The position numbers were made by a program, and so were the translations under genes. Source: Candidatus Latescibacterota bacterium (GTDB lineage Bacteria; Latescibacterota; UBA2968; UBA8231). From it: a stretch of DNA of 64,000 nucleotides. The notes beneath the pieces were generated by a model. It saw nothing but the letters and a program-made list of their open reading frames with translations. It was not told the DNA's origin and searched no databases. The stretch lies in contig OZ242005.1 of NCBI GenBank assembly GCA_965204725.1, positions 3,520,001 through 3,584,000 on the forward strand. Reading direction: 5' to 3'. Position 1 is the first letter of the stretch, and each line of letters begins with the position of its first letter. Below are positions 10,821-41,077 of this stretch, piece after piece.

Positions 10821-11182
10821 TCTAGTGTAACAAGCGGCTCTATCTCCTGCTCAATTTTGCGGCGCAATGTGCGCTCGGCGACATCGAGATCGTAGCGGGT
10901 CTGAAGATTGATCCAGAACTCAGGCGTCGTGTCTAAGTAGTGCCCGAGGCGCAGCGCAGTATCGGTTGTGACGCTACGACGTCCGAGCACAATATCGTTC
11001 AGCCGTGGCCGCGAAACCTTGATCGCCTGAGCGAGCCGGTACACGCTAATCTCCAGCGGAATCAGGAACTCGTCGCGCAGGATCTCGCCGGGATGCACCG
11101 GCGGCAACCGCCGCCCAGAGGCTACATCCGAGAAGTCGATCTCGCGCCGGTCCAGTTCTTCGCGTTTGATGGTCATGCTCAT
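10742..11182 (-). CDS. higA: HigA family antitoxin (HTH-XRE)
   Basis: PPVHPGEILRDEFL...TALRLGHYLDTTPEFWINLQTRYDL; directly downstream of higB; atypical C-terminal extension. Confidence 0.92.
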   Translation of the reverse strand: MSMTIKREELDRREIDFSDVASGRRLPPVHPGEILRDEFLIPLEISVYRLAQAIKVSRPRLNDIVLGRRSVTTDTALRLGHYLDTTPEFWINLQTRYDLDVAERTLRRKIEQEIEPLVTLDERRAIPPPVDPGRTAGPHVDGASLG

Positions 11183-12003: not shown

Positions 12004-12831
12004 TTAAAAGCGGATGGCCTTGTACTGCTTCACGTGCTCGGTAATGGCGACCTCCACCGGCAATCGCTCCATGCTCGACGCGCCGTAGAACCCATGGACG
12101 CCCGTGGTGTTTTGCAACACGTACTCAGCGTCGGCCGGCTCTGAAATCGGCCCCCCGTGGCACAGCACAATCACTTCCTCAGACACGCCACGCGCCGCGT
12201 CGCCTATCGCCTGCACAACCCCCACCGATTCCTCCAAAGTCAGGGCGGTCGTCGCGCCAATCGCGCCCTTGGTGGTAAGCCCGGTATGCGCCACCACAAT
12301 GTCGGCCCCGGCCCCGGCCATAAGCTCGCCCTCGGCGGGATTAAAGGCATAAGGCGTCGTCAACAAACCCATCTCGTGCGCCGTGCGGATCATCTCCACC
12401 TCCACTCCATACCCCATCCCGGTCTCCTCCAAGTTTTGCCGATACAACCCGTCAATCAGCCCCACGGTCGGAAAATTCTGCACCCCGGAAAACCCGATGG
12501 CCGCCACCTCGCGCAAGAAAACATCCATCTGCCGGAACGGATCCGTCCCGCACACGCCAGCCAACACCGGCGTATCCTCCACCACCGTCAACACCTCCCC
12601 GGCCATATCCATCACAATCGCATTGGCGTCCCCGTAGGGCATGGTCCCAGCCAGCGACCCCCGGCCGGCCATGCGAAATCGCCCGGAGTTGTAAATCACA
12701 ATCAAGTCAACTCCGCCAGCCTCCTCGAACTTCGCGCTGATCCCGGTCCCGGCACCCGCGCCGATAATGGGAATCCCAGCGGCGATGTGGCGTCGCAACC
12801 GCATGAGCACTTCTTCTCTTGTAAACGCCAT
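12004..12831 (-). CDS. PEP-hydrolase-like TIM-barrel protein (TBST family)
   Basis: [47 protein letters not shown] and [12 protein letters not shown]. Confidence 0.9.
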
Positions 12832-17425: not shown

Positions 17426-19246
17426 ATGTCCACCGCTCAGCGTCTCGACCTAAGCCAAGTGCGGCCGCCGATTGATGTCGATCCAGCGACCTGCGTCTAT
17501 CACCGGCTCGCACCGGCGAGCGAATTTGCCGCCGGCGAGGGCCGGTCCTTTACAGTCGAAGGCATTCACCTCGCGGTGTTTCTCTACGAGGGGGCCTTTC
17601 ACGCCGTTGACAATCGCTGCCCGCACATGGGCTACCCCATGTCCAAAGGCAGCATCCGCGACGGGGTGCTTATATGCCACTGGCACCACTGGGAATTTGA
17701 CCTAAAGACGGGCGGCTGCCTGCTGACTTCGGGCGACGACCTGAAAGCCTTTCCCGTGGAGGTGCGCGACGACGGCTGCGCGTGGGTCGGCATCCCGCCC
17801 GGCGAGCGGGAAGAGGCCCGCCGGCGGCTCGTGGCTCGCGGCAAGCGCATCCTCGAACAAGGGCTTAAGGACCGCAGCTCCTTCCTCATCGCCAAAGCGG
17901 TCGCCGCCCTCCGCCAGACCGGGGCCACCCCGCAGGAAATCATCCAGCAGGGCCTTTACTACGGCGCGCACAAAACCAACGAAGGCTGGTCCTCGGGCGT
18001 CGCCATCCTAACCCTCGCGGCGAACTTGTGGGACGACATTGCCGAGGCCGACCAAAACCTTTTCCTCGTCCACGGCTTGACCCAGATCTCGCGGCGCACC
18101 TCTGGCTCGTCGCGCCGCCAGCGCTTCCCCTTTCCCCGCACCAAGGCCGACCAAAATTTGGCCACCCTCAAGCGCTGGTTTCGCACCTTTGTCGATCAGC
18201 GGCACCACGGCGCGGCCGAGCGCATCTTGCTGACCTTGCACGACCGCGACTGCGGCAAGGAAACCCTCGCGGATTTTGTCTTTACGGCCGCCACGGACTT
18301 CTACTTCACCGGCGACGGGCACGCCCTCGACTTTGCCAACAAAATGTTCGAGGCCCTCGACTCCGTGGACTGGGTCGGTGCCCACGAGATCCTCCGCCCG
18401 ATCGTCGTCGATCTGGTCAGCCGCACCCGCCACGAAGAGACCTCGCGCTGGGCCGACAGCCTGCCGGCCTTAGAAAGCATCTTCTCGCGCCTAGACGCGA
18501 TCTGGGAGGACAACCAGCGCAACGAAGCCACCCTCGACGTCTCCGCCTTCGCCCAAGTCATGCTCGGCGACGATTTTGAACCCATTCTCGCCCGCGTCGA
18601 AGCGGCCCTGCGCGCGGGCGTACCGCCGACCCAGCTCTGCCGCGCCATGACCTACGCCAGCGCGTTGCGCACCCTGCGCTTCCACCTCAAAAACGAGGGC
18701 GATTGGCACGACGTCGCCAACATATATTCCTACGCCCACGCTCTATACGCGGCCTTCCACTACGCCGCCAGCAAGGAGCTGTTGCGCGCCATTTTTCACG
18801 GCGCAGTCTTTCTCACGTACCTGCGCTGGCTCAACATGCCGGCCGCCCGCGTCCCCCAGCTTGGACAAACGCTTGGCGAGGACTTCGCCTCCAGCGAGGC
18901 CATGCTCCAGCGTCTAGGGGAACTGGCTGACTTCCAGAAGGTCTTTGAGGCCGAACTCCTCGTCAGCCAGTACCTCGCAGAAGGACGCGACATCACCCAG
19001 CTCCGGTACGCCTTGGCCCACATCATGCTCCGCGAAGACGCCGAGCTGCACATGTTCCAAGTGCTCGAAGCCGCGTTCCGGCACTACGACTTGAGCAGCG
19101 ATCCAGCGGAAAAGCGCGTCCACCTTTTGGCCGCGACCCGCTACATCACCGCGCAGAAGGTGATGAAGAACATCCTCTGGTCCACCCAAAACGCCGAGCG
19201 GCTCCAGCGCGGCGAGCTCCTCAGCGAGCGCGAAGACGACGATTGA
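17426..19246 (+). CDS. Rieske [2Fe-2S] domain protein with long helical C-terminal region
   Basis: CPHMG...CHWHHW Rieske ligands; RBS AGGAGG; DGHALDFANK motif. Confidence 0.85.
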   Translation: MSTAQRLDLSQVRPPIDVDPATCVYHRLAPASEFAAGEGRSFTVEGIHLAVFLYEGAFHAVDNRCPHMGYPMSKGSIRDGVLICHWHHWEFDLKTGGCLLTSGDDLKAFPVEVRDDGCAWVGIPPGEREEARRRLVARGKRILEQGLKDRSSFLIAKAVAALRQTGATPQEIIQQGLYYGAHKTNEGWSSGVAILTLAANLWDDIAEADQNLFLVHGLTQISRRTSGSSRRQRFPFPRTKADQNLATLKRWFRTFVDQRHHGAAERILLTLHDRDCGKETLADFVFTAATDFYFTGDGHALDFANKMFEALDSVDWVGAHEILRPIVVDLVSRTRHEETSRWADSLPALESIFSRLDAIWEDNQRNEATLDVSAFAQVMLGDDFEPILARVEAALRAGVPPTQLCRAMTYASALRTLRFHLKNEGDWHDVANIYSYAHALYAAFHYAASKELLRAIFHGAVFLTYLRWLNMPAARVPQLGQTLGEDFASSEAMLQRLGELADFQKVFEAELLVSQYLAEGRDITQLRYALAHIMLREDAELHMFQVLEAAFRHYDLSSDPAEKRVHLLAATRYITAQKVMKNILWSTQNAERLQRGELLSEREDDD

Positions 19247-19336: not shown

Positions 19337-20521
19337 ATGATTCCGCGCCCACAGCCCATTGATCGTTTGCATACGGCCCTGTCCAGAAGCCCGTTGGTAC
19401 TGCTCGCCGGCCCGCGCCAATGCGGCAAAACCACCCTCGCCCGCGAGTTCGTGCGGGAGGATTCGGCCAACTACTTCGATTTGGAGGATCCGGTCAGTCT
19501 CGCTCGGCTCGACCAGCCAATGACCGCGTTAGAGACGCTGCGCGGCCTCGTCGTCATAGACGAAGTGCAGCGGCGACCGGACTTGTTTCCGGTTCTGCGG
19601 GTGCTGGCGGACCGCCGCGACGCACCGGCCCGATTCCTCATCTTGGGGAGCGCGTCCGGCGACTTGTTGCGCCAGTCTTCGGAGAGCCTAGCCGGACGGG
19701 TTGAGCACCTTACCCTCGGCGGCTTTCAGCTAGGCGAGGTGGGCACTGACCAAGCCGGTACTCTGTGGCTGCGCGGCGGTCTGCCGCGGTCGTACCTCGC
19801 AGCCGACGACGCTGCAAGCCACCAATGGCGCAAGGACTTCATTCAGACCCTGCTGGAGCGCGACATGCCCCAATGGGGAGCGCGGACCCCGGCTGTTGCG
19901 CTGCATCGCTTCTGGACCATGCTCGCCCACTATCACGGGCAAACTTGGAACGCGGCCGCGCCGGCCCGCGCCTTGGACGTGAGCGCATCTACAACGCGGC
20001 ACTATCTCGATCTGCTGACCGATGCCTTCATGATTCGCCAATTGCAGCCTTACTACGCGAACATCGCCAAGCGGCAAGTCAAGGCACCCAAAATCTATCT
20101 GCGCGACAGCGGCCTATTGCACCAGTTGCTCGCCATTCGGACGGAGGGCGAACTGATGAATCATCCCAGCCTGGGCGCGTCGTGGGAGGGTTTTGTCATC
20201 GAGCAGTTGCTTGCCTTGCTGCAACCCGAGGAGGCCTTTTTCTGGAGCACTCATCAGGGGGCTGAAATAGACCTCGTGTTGCGCCAGAATGGCCGCTGGT
20301 TAGGCGTCGAATGCAAGCGCACGGACGCGCCGCGCCTGACGCGCTCCATCCACACTGCCCTCGACGATCTAAAGCTCGAACGGGTCATTATCGTGTACCC
20401 CGGCCAAAAGTCATACGCCCTCAACGCGCAGGTCAATGTCGTGCCATTGCGCGTACTCGGCACCGCACAGGATGCGGGCGTCGGCTATGAAGCATTCACA
20501 GGAGTAGAAACGGCGCGGTGA
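19337..20521 (+). CDS. AAA+ ATPase (AAA_14) with DUF4143 / PD-(D/E)xK C-terminus
   Basis: GPRQCGKTT, IDEVQ, LGSAS, ESLAGR, PKIYLRDSGL and EIDLV...GVECK. Confidence 0.92.
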   Translation: MIPRPQPIDRLHTALSRSPLVLLAGPRQCGKTTLAREFVREDSANYFDLEDPVSLARLDQPMTALETLRGLVVIDEVQRRPDLFPVLRVLADRRDAPARFLILGSASGDLLRQSSESLAGRVEHLTLGGFQLGEVGTDQAGTLWLRGGLPRSYLAADDAASHQWRKDFIQTLLERDMPQWGARTPAVALHRFWTMLAHYHGQTWNAAAPARALDVSASTTRHYLDLLTDAFMIRQLQPYYANIAKRQVKAPKIYLRDSGLLHQLLAIRTEGELMNHPSLGASWEGFVIEQLLALLQPEEAFFWSTHQGAEIDLVLRQNGRWLGVECKRTDAPRLTRSIHTALDDLKLERVIIVYPGQKSYALNAQVNVVPLRVLGTAQDAGVGYEAFTGVETAR

Positions 20522-20549: not shown

Positions 20550-21638
20550 TTACTTTCGCCCTGTAAGTTTGTGCATGATCGCTTCAAGCGGCCCTAGCTT
20601 GTAGCGGGCTAGCCATAGGTGTGAGAACACGACGCCGACTACGGAAAATGCGGTGGCCGCAAACAACGCCCGGGGCAACGTCTGTGCAGTACCCATCCAA
20701 CCCACGGCTTCCAGCACCGACATGCCAAGCACCACGTGAGCCACGTATAGGGTAAGGGAAAGCTGCCCCGTTCTCACGAACGGACGAATCCAAGCGGCGT
20801 CCTCATATCGTTCGCCAAGCGCGACGGAGGCTGCGACGACGGCACTCGCTGTGCCAACTCCTGCGATCATGTAGAGTGGCATCGGAGGCATCGCGCTAGT
20901 TCCGAAGATCGCGACGACAATCTCCCGCTCAGCAGCACCAACTCCTGCTGAGAGCGCATGCACCAAGAACCAACTGATGCCCTCGGCCGCCAGAGCTGCC
21001 CCGAGACCCCAAGCGAAGACGCGCCAGCGGACGGAACGGTCCCCCATATCTCGACGGCCAAGGATCATGCCCACGAACAGGAACGCAAGCCACGGAATTA
21101 CCGGATGGAAACCATTGTAAAACAAATGGCGGACCATGCCCGACGGGGTCCAAAAGCCCGCGTACTCCAGTGTATCCCAATCCCACTCTCGCTCGTAATC
21201 CAATGCGAATAACATCACCGCGAAAGCGATCACGAGCAGAGTGCTATACGTCCAGAGTTGACGGGTGGAAGCAGCCAACGCGAAGGCTGCTACTCCTATG
21301 TAAATTCCGTAGAAATGGAGAATGTCGGCGGGGTAAATCGCGGCATAAAGCATGCCGGCGGCGAAGAGAAACAACGCCCGCCTCAGCAGTGTGTTGCGTT
21401 CCTTCGCCACTTGCTCGCGATCGCCCGAGGCACGACCTCTTTGAGATGCTAGAGAGACCCCTACACCAGCAAGGACCACAAAAGTAGCTGCTGCCCGTCC
21501 GTCAAACATGCCGGCTAGGCGGACGAGCCAGTCCGGGCCGTTCTGCTCGGCCCCCATCACGATCTTGAAATTCACGACGACCATGCCAAAGACGGCAAGC
21601 GCTCTGGCAAAGTCATAGCCAATGATTCGCTTTTTCAC
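20550..21638 (-). CDS. DUF418 / HGSNAT-like multipass membrane protein
   Basis: RIIGYDFARALAVFGM, DILHFYG, GQLSLTLYVAH and GPLE; GTG start at 21638. Confidence 0.8.
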   Translation of the reverse strand: MKKRIIGYDFARALAVFGMVVVNFKIVMGAEQNGPDWLVRLAGMFDGRAAATFVVLAGVGVSLASQRGRASGDREQVAKERNTLLRRALFLFAAGMLYAAIYPADILHFYGIYIGVAAFALAASTRQLWTYSTLLVIAFAVMLFALDYEREWDWDTLEYAGFWTPSGMVRHLFYNGFHPVIPWLAFLFVGMILGRRDMGDRSVRWRVFAWGLGAALAAEGISWFLVHALSAGVGAAEREIVVAIFGTSAMPPMPLYMIAGVGTASAVVAASVALGERYEDAAWIRPFVRTGQLSLTLYVAHVVLGMSVLEAVGWMGTAQTLPRALFAATAFSVVGVVFSHLWLARYKLGPLEAIMHKLTGRK

Positions 21639-21711: not shown

Positions 21712-21938
21712 CTACCTAAAACGCAGCTTCCACTCCTCAACCGCGCAGTAGAGGACCGGCACAATCGGCGCGGTTAGCACCACCGCAATCATGCCGCCGA
21801 AGGTGGGAATGGCCATCGGCAGCATGAGGTCTGCGCCGCGTCCACTCGCCGTCAGCACGGGGATCAGTGCCAAGATCGTGGTGGCCACGGTCATCAGACA
21901 GGGGCGGATGCGCCGCACCCCAGCAGCGAGCGCGGCGC
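21712..21938 (-). pseudogene. Duplicated 3' end of cusA (copy of 26059-26280)
   Basis: 21717-21938 aligns gap-free to 26059-26280 with 8 mismatches counted by eye; encodes RRIRPCLMT...EEWKLRFR*. Confidence 0.93.
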
Positions 21939-21983
21939 ATCGACAGCTTTTGCCGAGGCACTTCTTCAGGCTCTGAACTGCGC

Positions 21984-23546
21984 TTAAACAGTTCGCCTCA
22001 AATGGAACAGATCAGGCGATCGGCGGTCCCGTTCAAAAAGCGTTTGCCAATCCAACGCTAAAAGCAACCCAAACAGCTTCTCTTCTTTTAGCGTCGTCCA
22101 CTCTGTTCCGAACCATATCTCGGCCAATTCCCGTAAGCGAAATGGTCCCTTCGCTCCTCTTGCCATCAGATAGGCATATACCTCAGAGAGCTTGTTAAGA
22201 CGGAGTTGTCTCCCGTCTGCGATGCCCGCTCGCTGAGTATAGGTATATTCGCCGCCATTTTCGGGGAGTTGCACATCCACGGCCGGAGACCTCTCTCGCA
22301 CGGATTTAGCCAACTTCTTCCTCGCGGAGTCATCACCGTGTACGAAAAAGCATGTGCGCGGACGCAGTTTTTCGACCAATTCCGTCAGTTCTCTCTGATC
22401 CGCGTGGGCCGAAAGCGAGTATTGCTTCACGTCACACTCCACACTCACCTCCTGTCCATCAAGATTCAGGACACGCTCATCCTGCAACTTGCGCCCAGGA
22501 GTTCCTTCGGCCTGATAGCCTGTAAAAGCTATCAGGTTCTTCGGATCACCAGCTAAACGCTTGGCGTAATAATTCTTCGATACACCACCGTTCAACATCC
22601 CCGAAGATGCCACGATACAACAGGGAGGTCCTGACAAAATGCGATCGCGATGACCCTTTGAATCAACCCTCTTTACGAAAGCTGAATAAAAAATATCCTC
22701 GCTGCCTTTCGCTTTGCATTGCAAGGAAGGCGAGAGATCGTCAACAAAACGCGAATACACATCATTGACCTTTTGCACCATCCCGTCAACATACACCGGA
22801 ATCTGCTTCTGTTCCATGTGGCCCTTCAAGATCTGAAGGACCTCCTGAGAACGTGCCACGGCAAACGCTGGGATCAACACTTTGCCGCCTGCTTCAACCA
22901 CTTCGACCACATCCCGTACAAGCGCAGCCTCTTCTTGAGCGCGATCTTTATGCAGGCGACCGCCATAAGTCGATTCCATCACCATCACATCGGGGCGACA
23001 CCACTCTGGAATAACCATGCCGGGAATAGTCAACTGATCGGCAACCGATACATCACCCGTCAGCAGAATACTTTCCCGCTTGCCTTGGATGTAGATCATT
23101 GCAGCGCCCAAAATGTGACCGGCACGAATCCACGTAGCTTTCACGCCGTCGCATATCTGTACGGGTTCCATATACCGCACTAATTCCATACGGCTCAAGG
23201 CTTCACGGACATCGTTAGATAGCCTAGGAGACTCGCGTTCTTCCCGTCTCACAGCATCGTCTAACAACACCTGTGTAATATCTTTCGTCGCATGCGTACA
23301 ATACACCTTTTCGGGCAACCTGTTCTCTTTTACAAGCACAGGCAGAGCACCCGTGTGGTCGCTATGAGCGTGGGTCAACAGTAGAGCGTCAGGTTTGTCC
23401 AAAGCACCCAAATCAGGCCGCTTTGAATTTTTCCCAGGTCCCATTCGGATGCCTGCATCTACCAGAATACGGCATCCAGCGATCTCAATTAACGTACAGG
23501 AAGCACCAACCTCGTTGGCACCTCCGAAGAAACGTAGCTTGATCAT
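21984..23546 (-). CDS. MBL-fold beta-CASP nuclease (CPSF73/Ysh1-like)
   Basis: GGANEVGASC, THAHSDH, AGHILG, TGD, MESTYG, PAFAVARSQE, ASSGML, SAHAD and VHG; extra C-terminal ~75 aa. Confidence 0.9.
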   Translation of the reverse strand: MIKLRFFGGANEVGASCTLIEIAGCRILVDAGIRMGPGKNSKRPDLGALDKPDALLLTHAHSDHTGALPVLVKENRLPEKVYCTHATKDITQVLLDDAVRREERESPRLSNDVREALSRMELVRYMEPVQICDGVKATWIRAGHILGAAMIYIQGKRESILLTGDVSVADQLTIPGMVIPEWCRPDVMVMESTYGGRLHKDRAQEEAALVRDVVEVVEAGGKVLIPAFAVARSQEVLQILKGHMEQKQIPVYVDGMVQKVNDVYSRFVDDLSPSLQCKAKGSEDIFYSAFVKRVDSKGHRDRILSGPPCCIVASSGMLNGGVSKNYYAKRLAGDPKNLIAFTGYQAEGTPGRKLQDERVLNLDGQEVSVECDVKQYSLSAHADQRELTELVEKLRPRTCFFVHGDDSARKKLAKSVRERSPAVDVQLPENGGEYTYTQRAGIADGRQLRLNKLSEVYAYLMARGAKGPFRLRELAEIWFGTEWTTLKEEKLFGLLLALDWQTLFERDRRSPDLFHLRRTV

Positions 23547-23700
23547 GACTTCTCCTTTTCACAGTTGATCTCACAGGGACGATTCTATATCGCCCTGCTA
23601 GCATCTTGAAAGGCGCGTCATAGCACGATCCTAAAAGGATCAGAATGCGACTATTGAGCCGCGAAGTGCGACGCATCGAGAAAAAATATGAGGCGAATTG

Positions 23701-23743
23701 GTAGGGGGTGACCGATGAAGGAAATACAGCGGTCACCCCCTAC
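23701..23743 (-). terminator. 14-bp stem hairpin (terminator or processing site)
   Basis: GTAGGGGGTGACCG-N15-CGGTCACCCCCTAC, 7 nt after the microprotein stop; no strong U-tract. Confidence 0.55.
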
Positions 23744-23750
23744 TGATCAA

Positions 23751-23921
23751 TCACTTGCCCTTGCCTTTGGGGCTCTGTTGGTCCTGACTTTTACGCGATT
23801 GCCAATCATTGGGTCTCTGATTGTATTTTCGCCCTTGCCAATAAACATCGTTATTGGGATTCAACTGATTGGCGCGATTGTCAGCACCAGCTTTACCGCC
23901 TCCGCTACGGGATTTAGCCAT
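23751..23921 (-). CDS. 56-aa basic microprotein (MAKSRSGGGKAGADNRANQLNPNNDVYWQGRKYNQRPNDWQSRKSQDQQSPKGKGK)
   Basis: Translated by hand (below the ORF-track cutoff); strong RBS AAAGGAGGTG upstream of the ATG; hairpin downstream. Confidence 0.75.
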   Translation of the reverse strand: MAKSRSGGGKAGADNRANQLNPNNDVYWQGRKYNQRPNDWQSRKSQDQQSPKGKGK

Positions 23922-23968
23922 CTGTCATCACCTCCTTTCTCATGGGAATTTATCGCCTCACGGGAACA

Positions 23969-25714
23969 CTATGCTTTCCAATTGAGACGATCATCTTTCT
24001 CTCTTGTTCGATGTAGTTCTTTTCGACGTGTTCGCATAGCACCTGCCTCATCAATTTCTTTTCCAAGCGTCAAAAGATGAGCTTGGCGAAGCCACCAAAA
24101 CGCCTCAAATAGGGGACGACGCGGCGATGCACCGCGCTCTAAATTCGGTTTTCTCCGGTCTATATGCCGAATCTGCCTGTGTGCTCTTTTAGCCAATTTT
24201 CGGCACTCTTCATCGGGATCATTTTTAGAGAGCCAAAACAGTGTTCTATGAGCCCTTCCGCCGGGATTAACGCGCAGTGCCGTCAACGCCTGCACGTAGC
24301 ACTGCCGCCATACAGGCCGCGGTTCTACAAACTCTTCACGATTAGCATTTGTATCGTTTTTTTGGGTTTTGAGTCGTCCAAGGCAAAACTTGGCGAGCTC
24401 TTCACGCAAATCCTGCAACTGCGGGTCTCGGTCCAGTTCTGCCCGCAGGTTCTGAGGATACATGGCGATTTCGATCCACAGAGGTATTTCACTATACGGA
24501 TGAGGAGGGGCCTCTCTTCCAAGTTCGCCCCAAGGGCGAAGATCGGATGTAACGGCCGGCACGTTCATCTCCGTAAAGGCCAGCAATAAAGGCTTCAGGC
24601 GTTTCCACGGGTCGGCAAAAATTAGCAAAATATCAAAAGCCTTTCTGTAAAAATCGGACACTTCTCCTATCGAATTTTTCTCCTCAAAGGCTTTTGGGCT
24701 ATCCCGTAACACCGCCCGCAACATTCCTATATGCCTAGCGGCACTTTCGATAAGCCGACTTCTCAATTCTGGAGAGAGTTCGGATTCCAACCCGCCCATG
24801 CTACTGCTGTAAATTATCTTGGCTAATCGCCACCAAGCTTTAGTCAATGAGGAGCATTCCTGATTCGACTCTGGTGCTTTCGCTTCCAGAAGTTCCAAAA
24901 ATGGAATTAATTCACGTGCAACAATCCGCCATCCGTCATTCAGGGAATCTAAACCGGCCACATTCAAGGCATAACCAATAGCATTCAGAAGTCCGAGAAT
25001 CTCATCTCCTAAAACACCTTCTGGAACATCAGAAAAATGTTCCAATAACGTGTCCAAGCGGATTGTGCCGTGATGGTCTGTGCCTGAACGAAATCGCTGG
25101 ATTAACCAGAATTCGAGCTGTTTGGGATCTTCAAAATCACTGCTGGACCAGCTTCGTTGAATGGGACTCAAGAGATCAAAATCAACGACCTGCACTAAGG
25201 GCATACCATTTGGAAAAAGAAATCGAAGCAAATCATCAAGTTTATGAATAGACGACTTTAGTCTGTTCCAATCCAAACGCTCAGCGCAAAAATTTGCATG
25301 CTCTTGAAACTCGTCAGCCCATTGCGGAATATCCCAGACGCCGTCCGATCTCACAGGCTTAGGATTGGACTGGATCGTCTCACCTAAATACACAGGTCCA
25401 AAGCCAAGCATAGTGCTAAAAAGAAACGCCAAGCGGGTTTGACGATCTTTCTCAACCTGAACTTGTCCTTCTAAGTCTTTCAAGATGCTAGGCAGGACGT
25501 ATTCAAAACTGTCCTCAAAACCTTCTTTGAAGATAGAGGCACTATTAGAATCAGAGTTGCCAAAACAGTCGGGACGTTCAAAGACTTGTACTAGCCATCC
25601 CTGATCCGCCTCGCAGAAACCAGCATCTTGAAGGTGCTGTTTCAGTTCTTCTGAGTAAGAAAAATCTTTTGAAGGAAATACGAGACCGTTCCGGCCATTT
25701 TCAGCTTTGCTCAT
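23969..25714 (-). CDS. Hypothetical ~580-aa helical protein
   Basis: Long ORF in AT-richer DNA; ATG at 25714 with GGAG RBS; HEAT-like C-terminus (NDPDEECRKLA...LFEAFWWLRQAHL). Confidence 0.75.
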   Translation of the reverse strand: MSKAENGRNGLVFPSKDFSYSEELKQHLQDAGFCEADQGWLVQVFERPDCFGNSDSNSASIFKEGFEDSFEYVLPSILKDLEGQVQVEKDRQTRLAFLFSTMLGFGPVYLGETIQSNPKPVRSDGVWDIPQWADEFQEHANFCAERLDWNRLKSSIHKLDDLLRFLFPNGMPLVQVVDFDLLSPIQRSWSSSDFEDPKQLEFWLIQRFRSGTDHHGTIRLDTLLEHFSDVPEGVLGDEILGLLNAIGYALNVAGLDSLNDGWRIVARELIPFLELLEAKAPESNQECSSLTKAWWRLAKIIYSSSMGGLESELSPELRSRLIESAARHIGMLRAVLRDSPKAFEEKNSIGEVSDFYRKAFDILLIFADPWKRLKPLLLAFTEMNVPAVTSDLRPWGELGREAPPHPYSEIPLWIEIAMYPQNLRAELDRDPQLQDLREELAKFCLGRLKTQKNDTNANREEFVEPRPVWRQCYVQALTALRVNPGGRAHRTLFWLSKNDPDEECRKLAKRAHRQIRHIDRRKPNLERGASPRRPLFEAFWWLRQAHLLTLGKEIDEAGAMRTRRKELHRTREKDDRLNWKA

Positions 25715-26041
25715 GCTACACTCCAAGCTATATCCTGTGGACAATCTGGGTAAAACCCAAATTGCGAACCCGTCGGATTCCCGACCGAAGGACTATCAGG
25801 AACGGAAGAGATGCAAAAGGCATCAAAGCAACGAGGTTCTCATCTGCCTAAAACTTTTCCTATCCTGTGATCCTTGTCAACCCCTAACGATTTTTTTGTT
25901 AAGCCAAAACAGTCTCATAAATATCTGAGGCTATCAGGGGCAGACCGGACACCGGCCCTCCTGCGTTCACCTGCGACTTTGCCTTCGTGCCGCCGCCTGT
26001 ACTGCATATATAACACCCCTACCAACGAAATGTGTCACCTC

Positions 26042-29000
26042 TCACCAGCGAGCGCGCTTAAACCGCAGCTTCCACTCCTCAACCGCGCAGTAGAGCACCG
26101 GCACAATCGGCGCAGTTAGCACCACCGCAATCATGCCGCCGAAGGTGGGAATGGCCATCGGCAGCATGAGGTCTGCGCCGCGTCCACTCGCCGTCAGCAC
26201 GGGGATCAGCGCCAAGATCGTAGTGGCCGCAGTCATCAGACAGGGGCGGATGCGCCGCACCCCAGCGGCGAGCGCGGCGCGACGCATCGCCTCGACAGTC
26301 GCTGGTTTTTGCGCCCTAAAGACTTGGCCCAGATAGGTCGCCGCGATCACGCCGTTGTCCGAGGCAATGCCAAACAGCGCGAGAAAACCCACCCACACGG
26401 CCACGCTCAAGTTCAAAGGACGGATGTGGAAGAGGGCGCGCATCTCCGTGCCGAAGACGGAGCAATCCAAAAACCATTCCTGCCCGTAGAGCCACAGCAT
26501 GGCAAAGCCGCCAGCCCACGCCACCGCAACCCCGGAAAAGACCATCAGAGCCGTGACCGCGTTGCCAAACTGGAAATAGAGAATGAGGAAAATTGTCGCC
26601 AGCGCGAGCGGCAGCAGCACGTTGAGCTTCTTCTGCGCCCGCAGTTGGTTTTCGTAACTACCGGCGAAGGTATAGCTGACGCCGGTCTCCAGCACGAGAT
26701 CGCCGCTGGCCCTTTTGCTGGCCAAATGCGCTCGGCATGCTTCCACCACATCGACCTCGGCGTACCCCGGCTTTTTGTCGAAGAGCACATAGCCGAGCAA
26801 AAACGTATCCTCGCTCTTGATGACCTGAGGGCCGCGTACGTAGCGAATCTCGGCCAGCTCGCCCAAGGGGATCTGCGCCCCGTCCGGCGCGGGCACCAAA
26901 ATTCGCACCAGTTCCTCGACGCTGTCGCGCAACTCTCGCAGGTAGCGCACTCGCACTGGGTAGCGCTCGCGGCCTTCCACCGTGGTGGTGACCCGCTTGC
27001 CCCCGATGGCGATCTCAATTACGTCCTGCACCTTTTGCAGGGGGATGCCGTGGCGGGCAATGGCCTCGCGGTCAATGTGGATCTCCAAGTAGGGCTTGCC
27101 GATGATGCGGTCGGCGTTGACGGTCGCCGCCTCAACCGCGGGCACTTCCTTGAGCAAGCGCTCCAGCACCAAGCCGGCGCGCTCAATGGCCTCCAAGCTA
27201 GGGCCTTTGATCTCAATGCCCATTGGGGCGCGCATTCCGCTCTGCAACATGACGAGCCGCGCGGCAATCGGCTGCAACTTCGGCGCCGAAGTAGAGCCGG
27301 GAATCTGGCCGGCCCGGGCGATCGCCGCCCATATATCGTCGGGGCCTTGGATGCCCGGCCACGCCGCCCGGCCCGGATTGAGCGCGAGATCCAAGGGCGG
27401 ACGCCACAAGCGGAAGGGCCGCCCATCGGCGTTGGGCACGAGGCGGCCGGCCTCGTCGCGCAGGTAGCGGCCCGGCACCGTGTAGGGCGCGCCATCCGGG
27501 GCGGGCGCGGGCGTACCATCCGGGGCGCGAAACAGGTCTGGGACGCGCTCGTCAAAAGCGAATAGCAGGCGGCGGCCGGCCTCGTCGGTGAGGTATTCCG
27601 CACGATAGTTGACGATAGTCTCAATCATGGAAATCGGTGCGGGGTCCAGCGGGGTCTCCGCCCGCCCGAGCTTGCCCACTGCGGACTCCACTTCTGGTAT
27701 CTGCGCAATGGCCGCGTTTTGCTTTTGCAGGACGTCGAGCACCTCGCCGATGGAGGCGTGGGGCATGGTCGTCGGCATCCACAGGAAAGAACCTTCGTCG
27801 AGGGGGGGCATAAACTCTTTGCCCAACCCGGGCAGCGCCTCGGCGAGGGCCATAAAGGGCGCTGTGTTGCGTAGGGAGGGCGGCACGACGCCGAAGACGC
27901 GGGCAAAACCCAGCCACGCGGACGCCCCGGCCAGCAGCAGCAACAAGGGGAAGAGCAGGGCCAAGCCCTTGTGATCCAAGCACCACCGCAGCACGCGGGG
28001 GAACGCGACTTGCAAGACGCGAAAAAGGGCCAACAGGCCGCCGATCAATCCGGCAGCAAAGAGAAAGTTGCGCCATCCGCCCTTTTCCGGGCCGAGGGGC
28101 AACCAGTGTTCGGCCAACACGACTACTACTCCGCAGGCCGCGGCGGCAATGGCCCCTCGCGCCACCCACAAGCGCACTCGCTCTGGTACGCGGGCGGCGA
28201 GTAGGTGATACGTCCCAATGGCTATCAGCAGCAGGCCGATCCACTTCGACAGAACCAAGGCTACCCCGAGGCCACAGACAGCCCAAAGGCCGGGTGCCCA
28301 ACGACTCAGACGCACGGCAAACGCGCAGTGCGCCAAGGCCGGCAAAACCGTCAGCGACAGCCACACCGCGGCCAACAGCGCAAAGGTCTTGGTAAAGGCC
28401 AGCGGCGCGAAGAGCTTGCCCTCGGCCCCTTCCATGGCAAAGACGGGCAAAAAGCCCACTACCGTGGTGAGCACGGCCGTCAGCACGGCTCCGCCGACCT
28501 CGCGCGTGGCGCGGAATACCACTTCCAAGCGGTCGTCCTCTGCGTCGGCATCCTCTAAGTGCTTGAGGATGTTCTCGCTGATGACGATGCCCATATCGAC
28601 CATGGTGCCGATGGCAATGGCAATGCCGGAGAGGGCGACTATATTGGCTTCCACGCCAAAGACCTTCATGGCGGCGAAGCAGGCGAGCACGGCCAGCGGC
28701 AACAGCCCAGAGACCAGCGCGGCCCCGCGCAGATTCATCACCAGCACCAAGACCACGATCACCGTTACCAACACTTCCTCGCTCAGCGCACGCTCCAGCG
28801 TGCCCAAGGTCTCCTCAATCAAGCCGGATCGATCGTAAAAGGGAATCACTTGTACTTGGCTGACCCGCCCGTCGGGCAGGGTTTTCTGGGGCAAACTCGG
28901 GGCGATTTCCGCGATCTTGGCTTTAACGCTCTCAATGGCTGCTAGGGGGTTGGTGCCAAAGCGCGCCACCACCACGCCGCCGACCACCTCGGCGCCTTCC

Positions 29001-29902
29001 TTGTCCAACGCGCCGCGCCGCAGGGCCGGCCCTAGCGCGACCCGCGCGACGTTTTTGACGTAAATCGGGACGTTGTTCCGCGCTTTAATGACGGCGTTTT
29101 CAAGGTCGGCTAGTCCTTTGACAAAGCCGATGCCGCGGATGACGTACTCGGCTCGATTCAACTCGACCGTGCGCGCCCCCACGTCTCGGTTGGACATGCG
29201 CACCGCGTGGAAGACCTCGTCGAGCTGCACCCCATAGGCGCGCAGCGCGTCTGGGTTGACGTCGATTTGGTATTCCTGCACGAACCCGCCCACGGACGCC
29301 ACTTCGCTGACCCCCTCGGCCGCCAACAGAGCATAGCGCACCTGCCAGTCCTGAATGCGGCGCAGCTCGTGCAGATCCCAGCCGCCGGTGGGCGCGCCCT
29401 GTTCGTCGCGGCCTTCTAAGGTGTACCAGAACACTTGCCCCAAGGCCGTTGCGTCCGGTCCTAGGGCCGGCTGGACGCCCTCGGGCAGGAGGCCGGCCGA
29501 CAGGCTGTTGAGTTTCTCGAGGATGCGGGAACGCGACCAATAAAAATCAACCTCTTCGGCAAAAATTACATAAATGCTCGAAAAGCCAAACATCGAGAAG
29601 CTGCGGATCGTCTCGACGCCCGGGACGCCCAAAAGCGCCGTGGTCAGCGGGTAGGTCACCTGATCTTCCACGTCTTGCGGCGAGCGACCCGGCCACTCGC
29701 TGAAGACGATCTGTTGGTTCTCGCCGATGTCTGGAATCGCATCTACGGGCACGGGGTCGCGCGGCAGCCATGCCAGTTCCCAAGTAAAGGGGGCGACCGC
29801 AAGGCCCCAAGCCACGAGGCCGACCAACATGAGCGCGGCGACCAATTTGCGCGTGAGAAAGAAGCGCACCACGCGGTCGAGCAGCGAGTTTTGCCCTGCC
29901 AT
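26042..29902 (-). CDS. cusA: CusA/SilA heavy-metal efflux RND permease
   Basis: PVDAIPDIGENQ, GIAIAIGTMVD, EFMPPLDEG, LWMPTTMP and RRIRPCLMT. Confidence 0.92.
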   Translation of the reverse strand: MAGQNSLLDRVVRFFLTRKLVAALMLVGLVAWGLAVAPFTWELAWLPRDPVPVDAIPDIGENQQIVFSEWPGRSPQDVEDQVTYPLTTALLGVPGVETIRSFSMFGFSSIYVIFAEEVDFYWSRSRILEKLNSLSAGLLPEGVQPALGPDATALGQVFWYTLEGRDEQGAPTGGWDLHELRRIQDWQVRYALLAAEGVSEVASVGGFVQEYQIDVNPDALRAYGVQLDEVFHAVRMSNRDVGARTVELNRAEYVIRGIGFVKGLADLENAVIKARNNVPIYVKNVARVALGPALRRGALDKEGAEVVGGVVVARFGTNPLAAIESVKAKIAEIAPSLPQKTLPDGRVSQVQVIPFYDRSGLIEETLGTLERALSEEVLVTVIVVLVLVMNLRGAALVSGLLPLAVLACFAAMKVFGVEANIVALSGIAIAIGTMVDMGIVISENILKHLEDADAEDDRLEVVFRATREVGGAVLTAVLTTVVGFLPVFAMEGAEGKLFAPLAFTKTFALLAAVWLSLTVLPALAHCAFAVRLSRWAPGLWAVCGLGVALVLSKWIGLLLIAIGTYHLLAARVPERVRLWVARGAIAAAACGVVVVLAEHWLPLGPEKGGWRNFLFAAGLIGGLLALFRVLQVAFPRVLRWCLDHKGLALLFPLLLLLAGASAWLGFARVFGVVPPSLRNTAPFMALAEALPGLGKEFMPPLDEGSFLWMPTTMPHASIGEVLDVLQKQNAAIAQIPEVESAVGKLGRAETPLDPAPISMIETIVNYRAEYLTDEAGRRLLFAFDERVPDLFRAPDGTPAPAPDGAPYTVPGRYLRDEAGRLVPNADGRPFRLWRPPLDLALNPGRAAWPGIQGPDDIWAAIARAGQIPGSTSAPKLQPIAARLVMLQSGMRAPMGIEIKGPSLEAIERAGLVLERLLKEVPAVEAATVNADRIIGKPYLEIHIDREAIARHGIPLQKVQDVIEIAIGGKRVTTTVEGRERYPVRVRYLRELRDSVEELVRILVPAPDGAQIPLGELAEIRYVRGPQVIKSEDTFLLGYVLFDKKPGYAEVDVVEACRAHLASKRASGDLVLETGVSYTFAGSYENQLRAQKKLNVLLPLALATIFLILYFQFGNAVTALMVFSGVAVAWAGGFAMLWLYGQEWFLDCSVFGTEMRALFHIRPLNLSVAVWVGFLALFGIASDNGVIAATYLGQVFRAQKPATVEAMRRAALAAGVRRIRPCLMTAATTILALIPVLTASGRGADLMLPMAIPTFGGMIAVVLTAPIVPVLYCAVEEWKLRFKRARW

Positions 29903-31353
29903 CAGTGGCCTCCGTGGTGGTGCTCGGGCGCGGAGGACGCGCTGCCTGCTGGATACATCGCACTGGGCTGGGCGCGAATCTGGAGGGCGCTGTCAATTTT
30001 GAACGCGCCGTTGACTACGACTTGCTCGCCCTCGCGCAGGCCCTCGCGAACCAAGTAGTAATCCCCCGCCCGCGGCCCGAGCACGACCTCGCGGCCCTCG
30101 TATAGGCCCTCGCCGAGCGCGACGTACACCACGGCGCGTTTGCCCGTCAGCAGCGGCACCGAAGCGGGCACCACCAGCGGCTGCTCGCGCCCCGTCTCAT
30201 CGCCAGTGCCATAGCCTAGCTCTTCGGCGCGGACTAGATCCATGCCGCAAATGTCGCAGGTGCCCGGCTCGTCGCGGACGATTTCTGGATGCATCGGGCT
30301 GATCCATTTGCCAACGAGGGCGGCAGACAGGGCGCGCCCGTTGGCCCCCACCTCGGCTTGGGCCACGGCCCACACCAGCATCCCCGGCTTCAGCCGACCT
30401 TGCTCGTTGGCCACGTTGACCCGCACGCGCACCGTGCGCGTGCGCTCGTCAAGCACTGGATCGACGAAGGATATTTGGCCGGTGAACACCTCGCCCGGAT
30501 AGGCTTGGGTTGAAAATTCGACGGCCTGACCGTAGTGGATCCAAGACAGGTCCGACTCGTAGGCGCGCAGCTCTAGCCACAGCCGCGACAAGTCCGCGAT
30601 GGTGTAAATCGGCGTCCCGGTCTGCACGTACGCGCCCTCGCTGAGATGCTTTTCGATGACCACGCCGCCAGTGGGCGCGTAGATCGTCAGATGGTCGGAG
30701 GCGCGGCCGGTGTGCTCAACGCGCTCGATTTGCTCCTCCTTCAGCCCGAGCAAGCGCAGCTTTTCGCGCGCGGCCGCAACCAGCACCGGCTGCCCAACCG
30801 CCGCGCCGCTGTCAACCAATCGCTCGCGGGCGCGCAGGGCCTGAATAAGCTCCTCTTGGGCGGTCAACAACTCAGGACTGTACAGATAGGCTATGTGGTC
30901 GCCCTCTTCGACTCGCACGCCCGTATAGTCCACGTACAGCCGGTCGATCCGGCCCGCTACCCAAGCGGTGATGGAGCGAACTTGCGTCTCATCAACCGCG
31001 ATCTTGCCGACCATCCGCGTCTCGACCGGCGCGGCGCGGCGCTCGACCGGCGCGGTCTGGATGCTGGCAAGCTGCTCGGCGGCCGGCGAGAGGCGCGACT
31101 GGCGCGGCCCCAAGGAGTCGCCAACCTCGGGCGCGGTCACTCGGATTAGGTCCATCCCGCAGATTGGGCACTGACTCGGCCCGGGCTGGCGGATCTGCGG
31201 GTGCATTGAGCAGGTCCACGTTTCGGCCTGCTCGGCAACGGCCGCTGGGGCGCGGTCGCTCGGTGTATCCGAGCCGCCCAAACCCCAGCCCACGGCCAAG
31301 CCGACGATCCCGGCCGCGATGCCGGTCGCTATTATTTGCTTTGTCGCTTTCAT
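29902..31353 (-). CDS. cusB: CusB-type periplasmic adaptor with two heavy-metal-binding domains
   Basis: CSMHPQI...CPICGMDL and SPMHPEI...CDICGMDL; YSPELLTAQEE; His-rich tail. Confidence 0.9.
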   Translation of the reverse strand: MKATKQIIATGIAAGIVGLAVGWGLGGSDTPSDRAPAAVAEQAETWTCSMHPQIRQPGPSQCPICGMDLIRVTAPEVGDSLGPRQSRLSPAAEQLASIQTAPVERRAAPVETRMVGKIAVDETQVRSITAWVAGRIDRLYVDYTGVRVEEGDHIAYLYSPELLTAQEELIQALRARERLVDSGAAVGQPVLVAAAREKLRLLGLKEEQIERVEHTGRASDHLTIYAPTGGVVIEKHLSEGAYVQTGTPIYTIADLSRLWLELRAYESDLSWIHYGQAVEFSTQAYPGEVFTGQISFVDPVLDERTRTVRVRVNVANEQGRLKPGMLVWAVAQAEVGANGRALSAALVGKWISPMHPEIVRDEPGTCDICGMDLVRAEELGYGTGDETGREQPLVVPASVPLLTGKRAVVYVALGEGLYEGREVVLGPRAGDYYLVREGLREGEQVVVNGAFKIDSALQIRAQPSAMYPAGSASSAPEHHHGGH

Positions 31354-32612
31354 GGTTGGATTTCCTCTGTGGTTGCAAGCTCGCCGACCAGCTTTTCAAT
31401 CTCGGCCCAATGCAGGGCTTGGTCGGTGTGTGCGCGTTCGTACGCGAGCTGGAACGCGAGCAGGGTGCGTTGGGCGTCGATGACCGCGAGAAAATCGCTG
31501 CGGCCAGCGGCAAAGGCGCGTTGCGTTACGCTGAGCATAAGCTCGGCCTTGGGCAGCAGGCTGTCTTGGTAGAGCGCCCTGCGACTTTGGGCGTCGCGCT
31601 GCTTGTACAAGGCCAACTCTAGCTCGGCAACGAGCCTATTCTCCTCGTCCGCAAGGCCCTGCAAAGCGGCTTGATGGCTCAGCTTAGCCGCACGTTTTCC
31701 CTCCTCGTAGGCCGAGCGCCACAAGGGCAGGTTGACCGTCGCCATGGCGATCAGGGGATTCTCGCCGCGGTCACCGATGTGGATGTAATCGAGACTCACG
31801 GTCAAGTTTGGGTAGAACCGCTTGCCGGCCAATTCAACGCCTAGGGACTGCGCCCGCGCTTGCGCTTGCCGCGCTTGCCGCGTTGGGTTTGCGGCCAGCA
31901 AGCGGCCCTTTAGCTCTTCCTCGTCGAGGGCCAACGCGGCCATGGGCAGCGAGTCGGGCACGGCTATCGGGGCGGTCGCCGCGCGGCCGAGTGCCGCATT
32001 TAAGCGGGCCGAGGCCGGACGCCGCTGCTGACGCAGGCTGCGTAGCCGATCCGCTAAGCGGCCCAATTCCACCTGTGCCTTGAGCACGGCCGCGTGTTCC
32101 CCGGTGCCGCCGCGATAGCGGGTGCGGCCTACCTCTTCTAGATGCGACAACAGGCGCACGTTGCTCTCGGTGACGGCGATGGCTCGCTCCAAAAAGTAGC
32201 AGTCGTAGTACGCGGCCTTGACCGCAAAGACCAGCGACCGCCGCGCCGCCTCATAGCGTTGGCCCTCAACTTCGGCTTCTTGCTCGGCGATTTGTCCCTT
32301 GAGGTTCAACGTGCCCTTCCAAGGGAAGGTTTGCGCCGCACTCACGCGCATTTCTTGCGGGCCGGTGCGCGTCTCCACCGGGCGTGCGAAATAGCCGTAG
32401 GTCAGGCGGGGGTCGGCCCAAGCACTCGCCGGGGCCACCTTGGCTAGGGCGGCTTGATAGTGCGCCAAAGCCTGCTTGAGCTTGGGGTTGTGCTGTTCAG
32501 CATAGCGCACATACTCCGCGAGCTCGGCTCGGGGGTCGAGCACTGCTTCCTGCGACCAAACTGGTATTGCAAGCAGACCCGCTAGCAGCAGGGCCGTTCT
32601 ATTTTTGTACAT
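31350..32612 (-). CDS. TolC/CusC family outer-membrane efflux protein
   Basis: Signal peptide; AEQHNP, QTFPWKG, YP and DFLAVIDAQR; operon position. Confidence 0.88.
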   Translation of the reverse strand: MYKNRTALLLAGLLAIPVWSQEAVLDPRAELAEYVRYAEQHNPKLKQALAHYQAALAKVAPASAWADPRLTYGYFARPVETRTGPQEMRVSAAQTFPWKGTLNLKGQIAEQEAEVEGQRYEAARRSLVFAVKAAYYDCYFLERAIAVTESNVRLLSHLEEVGRTRYRGGTGEHAAVLKAQVELGRLADRLRSLRQQRRPASARLNAALGRAATAPIAVPDSLPMAALALDEEELKGRLLAANPTRQARQAQARAQSLGVELAGKRFYPNLTVSLDYIHIGDRGENPLIAMATVNLPLWRSAYEEGKRAAKLSHQAALQGLADEENRLVAELELALYKQRDAQSRRALYQDSLLPKAELMLSVTQRAFAAGRSDFLAVIDAQRTLLAFQLAYERAHTDQALHWAEIEKLVGELATTEEIQP

Positions 32613-32680: not shown

Positions 32681-32761
32681 TCCGTCATTCCCGCGAACGC
32701 GGGAATCCAGCCGGTATCGTCTATACACAAGAGACGACCACCAGAGTCTTCAGACCGCTTC
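32681..32761. repeat. Partial copy of the MITE at 40876-41010, containing the GTCATTCCCGCGAACGCGGGAATCC hairpin
   Basis: 81 bp aligning to 40930-41010 (8 mismatches by eye); both copies followed by TTAG. Confidence 0.85.
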
Positions 32762-32787
32762 TTAGGACAAACTCGGTGCGGCGAGAA

Positions 32788-40875: not shown

Positions 40876-41010
40876 GAGGCTGTCTGAAAACCCACCTTGG
40901 GTCCTGTTGAACAAGCCGTAGAGACAGGATCCGTCATTCCCGCGAAAGCGGGAATCCAGCCGGTACCGTTTAGACGCAAGGGACGACTACCAGAGTTTTC
41001 AGACCGCTTC
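40876..41010. mobile_element. 135-bp MITE, IS5-family (IS1031-like) ends
   Basis: TIRs GAGGCTGTCTGAAAA / TTTTCAGACCGCTTC (13/15 match); TTA on both flanks; internal GTCATTCCCGCGAAAGCGGGAATCC hairpin. Confidence 0.75.
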
Positions 41011-41077
41011 TTAGAAAATTGGAGGCTAGTGCGTGTAGTAAGAAAGTCGGCTGTAAAAGCAGGTCCTCGTCGGCGAT

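Follow-up and report, generated by a model that had tools for sequence, protein, structure and literature searches.

How a chromosomal island comes to be bracketed by two copies of the same gene end, when no integrase is encoded in or around it, is the question raised by a locus of Candidatus Latescibacterota bacterium (assembly GCA_965204725.1, contig OZ242005.1, forward-strand positions 3,520,001 to 3,584,000), a stretch of 64,000 nucleotides that is referred to here as the window. At this locus the 3′ end of cusA, the gene for a heavy-metal efflux pump, is present twice, once on the intact gene (copy B) and once as an orphan fragment (copy A); the two copies enclose a cassette, C1, and a second cassette, C2, lies beyond the orphan copy (Table 1). 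We find that the locus is a recombination hotspot, free of integrase genes, where two core genes converge: cusA and a gene encoding a Rieske-domain protein. We consider it probable that the window holds C1 and C2 in tandem through additive, homology-driven recombination between a cusA-C1 and a cusA-C2 allele, both of a close lineage, and not through site-specific attachment.

The two tails constitute a 222-nt direct repeat, both copies on the minus strand, which aligns without gaps at 96% identity and is the longest repeat in the window; there are six direct repeat families of at least 35 nt and the runner-up is 85 nt long. A first reading made from the letters alone (the sequence-only reading) had given the positions, the size and the number of mismatches exactly, and its description of the differences holds: seven of the eight are synonymous third-position changes and the other is a second-position change, GCG to GTG, that replaces Ala with Val and is private to the orphan copy. 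The final codons differ as it had described, copy A ending in KLRFR-stop and copy B in KLRFKRARW-stop, and the ~4.1 kb between them is indeed AT-richer DNA, with a GC content of 0.44-0.53 against 0.62-0.68 in the flanks, the lowest in the window. The orphan copy carries four private changes, three of them synonymous, and no indel across its 74 codons; the copies have two derived sites in common relative to all 19 relatives in the tail alignment (from which L006 and L008 were dropped), and they share an identical run of 95 nt.

A scan of a genome collection with the last 330 residues of CusA as query yielded 80 loci, of which 21 (L001 to L021) form a set of related species, represented by Candidatus Latescibacterota genomes at 85-98% protein identity, many of them complete chromosomes. 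Two of these, L006 and L008, are labelled Gemmatimonadota/Gemmatimonadetes, yet their CusA is 94-95% identical and they are syntenic with the Latescibacterota loci, and the labels probably reflect an older binning taxonomy. The Rieske gene is downstream of cusA in 18 of the 21 relatives, and is not within 10 kb in the other three (L009, L016, L019). Six (L004, L010, L011, L012, L014, L021) have an empty site, in which cusA ends in KLRVAAWRSAE-stop and the Rieske gene lies 10 nt past the end of the cusA stop codon, with a spacer of ~6 nt between the two stops, and twelve have 1.3-7.6 kb of varying content between the two genes. With 15 of the 21 sites non-empty and their contents different, the proposal that the cusA terminus acts as a recombination hotspot is supported. 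That proposal had also called for a comparison of related genomes for different cassettes beside the same duplicated tail, and had named an identical gene order and duplication in all relatives as what would speak against it; the cassettes do differ, but the 222-nt duplication is present in none of the 21.

C1 itself recurs in L001 (91% nucleotide identity) and L005 (81%), in each case without a second cusA tail, and in L018, where its nuclease gene is truncated at the N-terminal end. L001 is collinear with the window from 32675 to 21941 at 90.9% identity, and the left edge of C1 is defined by the empty-site relatives, whose homology to the window ends at 26063. Over cusB, cusA and C1 sliding identity reveals no recombination breakpoint, and L001 is the closest relative throughout. 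In L002 and L003 the position of the nuclease, after a homologue of the C1 gene p591, is taken by a prokaryotic viperin (PADLOC pVip; 315 bits with NF038283, whose cutoff is 180). Other cargo includes a type II restriction-modification (R-M) pair (L017, L018), AAA ATPases (L009, L018), PDC-M09A with SLATT (L015), Fic (L019) and PDC-S01, as well as genes not associated with defence: an FGE-sulfatase, a LacI with a Calx-beta giant, and an oxidoreductase. The locus therefore has the character of a defence hotspot, in that core flanks found in 18 of 21 relatives hold variable content that includes pVip above its curated cutoff, R-M, PDC-S01, PDC-M09A, SLATT and Fic, although this is a presence count and not an enrichment statistic. 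In L018 (11002-18595) there is a three-layer stack, in the order cusA, ATPase cassette, 83-nt orphan cusA tail, C1 (p591, small open reading frame [ORF], truncated nuclease), 75-nt orphan tail, type II R-M pair and Rieske gene. The DUF418 gene of C2 has no tblastn match in any of the 80 loci, and its product has relatives at 83-98% identity in other assemblies.

The island was claimed to be integrase-free, and this is what we find. No integrase or transposase Pfam family is present among 43 ORFs of the window (eight around the island and 35 others), and no integrase, transposase or other recombinase family among 53 ORFs in 13 variable regions of the relatives. The 53 were drawn from 76 ORFs of at least 90 aa; the 23 omitted are those of L001, L008 and L013, the DUF4143 ORF of L017, the p591 ORFs of L002 and L003, and ten others of 91-130 aa that mostly overlap larger ORFs. 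There is no Rfam family, CRISPR array or tRNA in or adjoining the island, and a scan for promoter and terminator consensus sequences gave background levels only.

The points at which cassettes meet the core genes are not fixed. Within cusA the junction follows CTGCG (C1, L019, L020), GTGG (L017), GTGGC (L015), GTGGCG (L018) or GCGGTCAG (L009), and elsewhere it lies after the stop codon (L016) or 10 nt (L007), 53 nt (L006, L008) or 119 nt (L013, L017) into the Rieske tail, a spread of ~40 nt and beyond. The cassettes exchange the last 2-15 codons of cusA for sequence of their own, and the new CusA C-termini (FKRARW-stop, FR-stop, WVAKR-stop and others) are mere read-through into cassette DNA; to this extent the cassettes do bring their own replacement gene end, as had been suggested, but the 222-nt duplicate is not such an end within an attachment site. 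The orphaned pieces vary as well. Aside from that of the window, orphan cusA tails are 83 and 75 nt long in L018 (the latter with an L017-type ending) and 45 nt in L009, and the Rieske gene has left tails of 119 nt in L013 and L017, where they lie past the DUF4143 cassette, of 53 + 31 nt in L006 and L008, where a later insertion divides the tail, and of 10 nt in L007. When each locus was searched with its own cusA tail (74 of the 80 were testable, six having too little downstream DNA), L009 and L018 had orphans, L067 possibly one (33 nt), and no other locus did; a 20-nt inverted match in L060 is probably a hairpin.

Two further observations concern orphaned gene ends. In L013 and L017 the Rieske fragment is fused to ~40 nt similar to the 3′ terminus of the gene for the R-M endonuclease in L018. 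At L015:13749-14027 the nuclease gene is reduced to its last ~100 nt together with the C1 terminator.

The boundary between the orphan tail and C1, which we call J1, falls within a terminator. Four relatives (L001, L005, L018, L015) have the right end of C1 intact, as a hairpin of 15 perfectly matched pairs with a U-run behind it; for the L001 hairpin the free energy is -30.3 kcal/mol and z is -5.6, and CAUUUUAU follows. The 3′ arm includes CTGTCG and is kept in all four as AAAGCTGTCGGGGCAC. In the window the hairpin has been cut 5 nt into this arm and joined to cusA (...AAAGCTGTCG on the one side of the cut and ATGCGCCGCG... on the other), and the residual hairpin, with a z of -1.07, is no better than shuffles. 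CTGTCG also occurs 17 nt upstream of the repeat within cusA, and its presence in both partners makes it a candidate microhomology at an illegitimate joint. The 5′ edge of the orphan copy had been interpreted as cusA eroded by short deletions; the edge does lack 5 nt (TCGCG) that cusA has, but the CTGTCG found there belongs to the terminator hairpin of C1, as its 3′ arm. Judging from the aligned sequences, J1 appears to be a one-off illegitimate joint, and neither the edge of an attachment site nor an erosion of cusA. With the terminator cut, transcription of C1 is predicted to run on into the orphan tail and the DUF418 gene.

Taken together, the scattered junctions, the varied tails and this one-off joint suggest that the 222-nt duplicate is flanking DNA carried along in a homology-driven event. 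A donor fragment would begin ~231-238 nt short of the cusA end, take in C1 and stop inside its terminator; it would close on itself at the CTGTCG microhomology to create J1, and the resulting circle would integrate by a single RecA-type crossover inside the cusA tail. A linear route, in which a single homologous crossover is combined with one illegitimate joint, would be topologically equivalent and indistinguishable here; both the circular or one-ended mechanism and the direction of transfer are what we infer from the structure. The almost non-existent spacer between the core genes would act as a filter on the outcomes, with survivors being those that bring an intact gene end so that both core genes keep working, and the recurrence of orphan tails from both genes could be explained if only such insertions survive. 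As the tails share two derived sites the exchange partner is likely to have been a close relative, and these sites, together with differences that are mostly synonymous (three of the four private to the orphan), suggest that the copies diverged within working genes in separate but close genomes. Acquisition from a relative by homologous recombination, one of the routes that the sequence-only reading had put forward, is consistent with this.

There are nonetheless several points that weigh against such a merger. The parental allele that it calls for, cusA-KLRFR-C2 without C1, is absent from the 80 loci. L001, the closest species, has the allele cusA-C1-DUF4143 with an intact terminator, and its C1 shows the same divergence as the flanks (85-96%), so that either cassette may have been the resident one. 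The argument from synonymous changes is based on four sites (~p 0.06, an estimate). A crossover at CTGTCG leaves 10 further bases missing relative to cusA, and an alternative J1, with a 2-nt CG overlap and one 5-nt deletion, is equally possible; the joint is also known from assembled sequence alone.

An intragenomic origin, which we judge to be unlikely, would begin with a microhomology-mediated tandem duplication between sister chromosomes, extending from cusA position -231 to the C1 terminator, after which the second C1 was replaced by the DUF418 segment and the tails diverged in place. CTGTCG is available at both breakpoints, the tails are sisters with two derived sites in common, and tail A ends in KLRFR as in the L001 C1-type allele, which implies that it once abutted C1-type sequence. 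This origin requires, however, a further replacement that was precise at both of its junctions, it passes through a 4.3-kb tandem repeat that would be unstable, and three synonymous changes out of four with no indel in 74 codons, albeit small numbers, are not expected of a pseudogene drifting over ~85% of the window-L001 divergence.

The e14 element of Escherichia coli occupies the 3′ end of a protein-coding gene, icd, as an island that leaves a diverged duplicate of the gene end, and it has its own integrase and a fixed short core. We regard it as very improbable that C1 is the remnant of such an integrative island, either e14-like or integrase-less and cis-mobilisable, with the 3′ end of cusA as its attachment site and mobilisation in trans, one of the interpretations to which the duplication had first given rise. 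Direct repeats on either side of a two-gene island of low GC that adjoins a protein-coding gene at its 3′ end are what such an element would leave, the left boundary of C1 after KLR is identical in the window, L001, L003 and L005, and in the four relatives whose terminator is whole the right end coincides with it. But there is no integrase in the window or in the 13 scanned variable regions and no integrase-bearing element at the site in any relative, which speaks against a site-specific recombinase acting in trans, and L001 and L005 hold C1 without a second tail. The boundary of the orphan copy cuts the terminator and is unique to the window, the other tails differ in length, the Rieske gene is scarred in like manner, and the junctions of other cassettes scatter, so that neither a fixed core nor an e14-like attachment site can be recognized.

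Most doubtful of the three is an artefactual chimera, formed in assembly or amplification from co-occurring cusA-C1 and cusA-C2 strains, for although all 21 relatives are metagenome-assembled genomes, mostly synonymous tail divergence is expected of two strains, and amplification chimeras arise at microhomologies, assemblers join at long shared sequence and J1 shares only 2-6 nt, outside the repeat; L018, an independent complete chromosome, also proceeds from C1 to an orphan tail to another cassette; and a DUF418 protein in another assembly (98% identity) runs 22 aa further upstream, matching the window to 21704.

Integrons employ an integrase, IntI, and attC sites, in which the cores are conserved and some bases are extrahelical. 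Like integron arrays, the locus has cassettes stacked at the promoter-proximal side, each ending in a hairpin; but there is no IntI, the cassettes are multigenic, and no AAC/GTT core was seen by eye. The perfect stems and U-runs of the cassette-end hairpins (a 15-bp stem in C1) mark them as terminators, unlike attC, and we rejected an integron array on these grounds, with the core motifs judged by eye.

Homology-driven additive recombination, the account that we favour, has closer parallels elsewhere. The displacement of C-terminal regions in Rhs, contact-dependent inhibition (CDI) and type VI secretion system (T6SS) loci (PMC5361080) similarly places a full-length gene with a new 3′ end and cassette before a displaced old 3′ fragment and its old cassette; homology-facilitated illegitimate recombination (HFIR) is proposed there for stacked T6SS and Rhs arrays, with multilayer stacks as in L018, no integrase, and a homologous anchor paired with an illegitimate joint. 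The same arrangement is seen in the window, where tail A is followed by the DUF418 gene, in L018, where two orphan tails are followed by C1 and by R-M, and in L009 with one orphan tail. In the Rhs, CDI and T6SS systems the displaced tip is a polymorphic toxin and itself the cargo, whereas here the tail, which encodes a conserved membrane stretch of an efflux pump, is only a passenger, the cargo consists of unrelated defence-type genes, and a second, convergent gene is scarred too. In E. coli conjugation into lacZ, 56 of 60 integrants had homologous gene-end duplications, of 109-950 bp in the 14 clones sequenced, which arose when a shortened circle integrated by one crossover (PMC3240628). There too a gene-end duplication flanks the insert and recombination is RecA-type without site specificity, and tails of 222, 119, 83 and 75 nt are in or near that range; but lacZ is a laboratory plasmid system, and the present case would be a natural chromosomal event, deduced from sequence, with its closure joint in a terminator hairpin. 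The core defence hotspots (cDHS) of Pseudomonas aeruginosa (PMC10250203) have fixed core flanks, variable low-GC and defence-rich content and no mobile-element class, as at this locus, and transfer through flank homology is proposed for them. They differ in their median size of 26 kb, compared to 0-7.6 kb here, in the phylum, and in that orphan-tail scars here record the addition of cassettes. We regard the locus as a fresh instance of two known kinds, the integrase-free core defence hotspot and homology-driven gene-end displacement.

Table 1. Features of the cusA-Rieske locus; positions are those of the window unless a relative's locus is named.
Feature	Position	Strand	Description
Rieske-domain gene	17426..19246	+	Conserved right-hand flank; Pfam Rieske; convergent with cusA
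DUF4143 AAA ATPase	19337..20521	+	Rieske side of hotspot; PADLOC candidate PDC-S01
Cassette C2	20526..21716	-	DUF418/YeiB-type membrane acyltransferase-like gene, ~20550..21638; Pfam DUF418, HGSNAT_cat, Acyl_transf_3
Orphan cusA tail, copy A	21712..21940	-	Repeat proper 21717-21938; in frame to own stop, ...KLRFR-stop
Joint J1	21940..21941	.	C1 terminator / cusA from ~231 nt before the KLR codon
Truncated C1 terminator	21941..21965	-	5′ arm 21951-21965, loop 21946-21950, 3′ arm 5 nt only (21941-21945)
Cassette C1	21941..26062	-	4,122 bp, GC 0.44-0.53; begins after R codon of ...KLR, ends within own terminator
Beta-CASP metallo-beta-lactamase-fold nuclease	21984..23546	-	520 aa; CPSF73/INTS11/aCPSF1/Cas14 type; Pfam Beta-Casp, RMMBL, Lactamase_B
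Palindrome GATCCTTTTAGGATC	23627..23641	-	In a ~100-nt stretch 5′ of the effector gene that is conserved in nuclease-type as well as viperin-type cassettes
Terminator-like hairpin after small ORF	23701..23743	-	17-nt arms, 94% complementary, then T-rich run
Small ORF	23751..23921	-	56 aa (MAKS...DNRANQLNPNN...); Shine-Dalgarno AAGGAGGTGAT
p591	23969..25714 (ORF from 25744)	-	581 aa from conserved Met; all-alpha solenoid; C-terminal half conserved, Arg/Trp/His-rich
Repeat copy B	26059..26280	-	True 3′ end of intact cusA, ...KLRFKRARW-stop
cusA	26042..29902	-	CusA/CzcA RND heavy-metal efflux pump, 1286 aa, intact; Pfam ACR_tran E 5.5e-167; NCBIfam TIGR00914 743.6 bits (cutoff 701)
cusB	29902..31353		Upstream of cusA
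OEP gene	31350..32612		Outer-membrane partner; upstream of cusA
Viperin genes	L002:13560-14534; L003:13743-14642		Directly after p591 homologues
Orphan Rieske 3′ fragments	L013:7483-7601; L017:15047-15164; L006/L008:11006-11058 and ~12147-12186; L007 ~11003-11015

The family models of CusA are only ~1050 residues long and match it piecewise, which implies that ~250 aa have been inserted midway along the protein. Another repeat in the window, intergenic and 85 nt long with 91% identity, occurs at 32681-32765 and 40930-41014 and contains the hairpin TCATTCCCGCGAA(A/C)GCGGGAATCC; one of its copies is just 5′ of the cus operon, where synteny with the relatives breaks as well.

The product of p591 belongs to a large unannotated family and is the most promising side lead to come from this locus. 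Its family comprises 442 relatives, and 459 clusters at 50% identity, from sources named as Latescibacterota, Gemmatimonadota and Poribacteria; assemblies of the same species encode it at 97-99% identity. It has no match in Pfam, NCBIfam or PADLOC 2.0 (nor has the L005 copy in PADLOC), none of 16 diverse members matches Pfam, and plasmid and phage collections gave no match to p591. An AF2 model built from a 52-sequence alignment (pLDDT 86.6, pTM 0.85) predicts an all-alpha solenoid, and a fold search with it gave no match at E<=0.001 in PDB or BFVD, only generic ARM/HEAT solenoids. Two candidate relationships were set aside: the INTS11-binding HEAT protein 8uib_T as a fold relative, which is not significant (E 0.15, TM 0.22), and DUF6138, a protein atlas lead (0.89, 155 shared features) that is weak and that Pfam does not confirm. 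A predicted complex of p591 (residues 115-591) with the beta-CASP nuclease scored 0.00, which weighs neither for nor against binding.

The nuclease has the same fold and catalytic motifs as CPSF73, INTS11, aCPSF1 and Cas14. It matches PDB sequences at E 1e-62 to 1e-48, and D30, H59, H61, D63, H64, H144, D165, E191, H381 and H403 are invariant in 48 sequences; another contig encodes a version of it at 96% identity. It differs from these proteins in scoring below all curated cutoffs (NCBIfam aCPSF1, 313 bits; Cas14, 297 bits with a cutoff of 800), in a family-specific C-terminal extension of ~90 aa and in its p591 partner, and it has no KH domains, Cas7, Cas5 or CRISPR array; neither it nor the L005 copy matches a PADLOC 2.0 defence model. 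Membership of a type VII CRISPR-Cas system was rejected on the Cas14 score, the lack of Cas7, Cas5, a CRISPR array or any Rfam match, and the neighbours, which are p591 and the small ORF. The nuclease family also includes a second size class of 831-849 aa (proteins P0318-P0389) in the same phyla, with ~300 extra C-terminal residues that have no Pfam match. These longer forms are not p591 fusions, and no natural fusion of the two was found.

The small ORF (44-56 aa) is open, with the same Shine-Dalgarno sequence, in all six C1-type loci (window, L001, L005, L018, L002, L003), and its product has no Pfam or PDB match, with weak leads only from the protein atlas. Its type tracks the effector and not the type of p591, NRANQLNPNN accompanying the nuclease in four of four loci and TPKDAARIQ...FAARAQRAA the viperin in two of two. 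The palindrome upstream of the effector gene was matched in 0 of 100 shuffles and, from its sequence and position, may be an operator or promoter common to swappable effectors. For 15 of 120 listed p591 relatives the contig is exactly the same size as that of one of 120 listed nuclease relatives, four such contigs being smaller than 6 kb, which suggests, if indirectly, that the two genes are adjacent in many genomes.

From its context, C1 may have a role in defence. We tentatively raise the possibility, though we would not rate it as likely, that p591 and the small ORF form the sensing or regulatory core of an undescribed antiviral family with a swappable beta-CASP RNase or viperin effector, which spreads among sponge-associated phyla (Latescibacterota, Gemmatimonadota, Poribacteria), with C1 addressed by homology through its 222-nt tail. 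A RecA crossover between the two tails would then free a 4.3-kb circle able to re-enter the cusA of relatives, and the locus would, on this view, amount to a natural record of the building of integrase-free defence hotspots.

How integrase-free hotspots gain and stack their cargo is posed as an open question in the discussion of PMC10250203. The scars at this locus, namely the orphan tails of both flanking genes, the cut terminator and the L018 stack, speak for recombination that was additive and driven by homology. At each of the six loci considered, p591 adjoins either a viperin or a CPSF-like nuclease, which makes it a concrete candidate for a new defence module.

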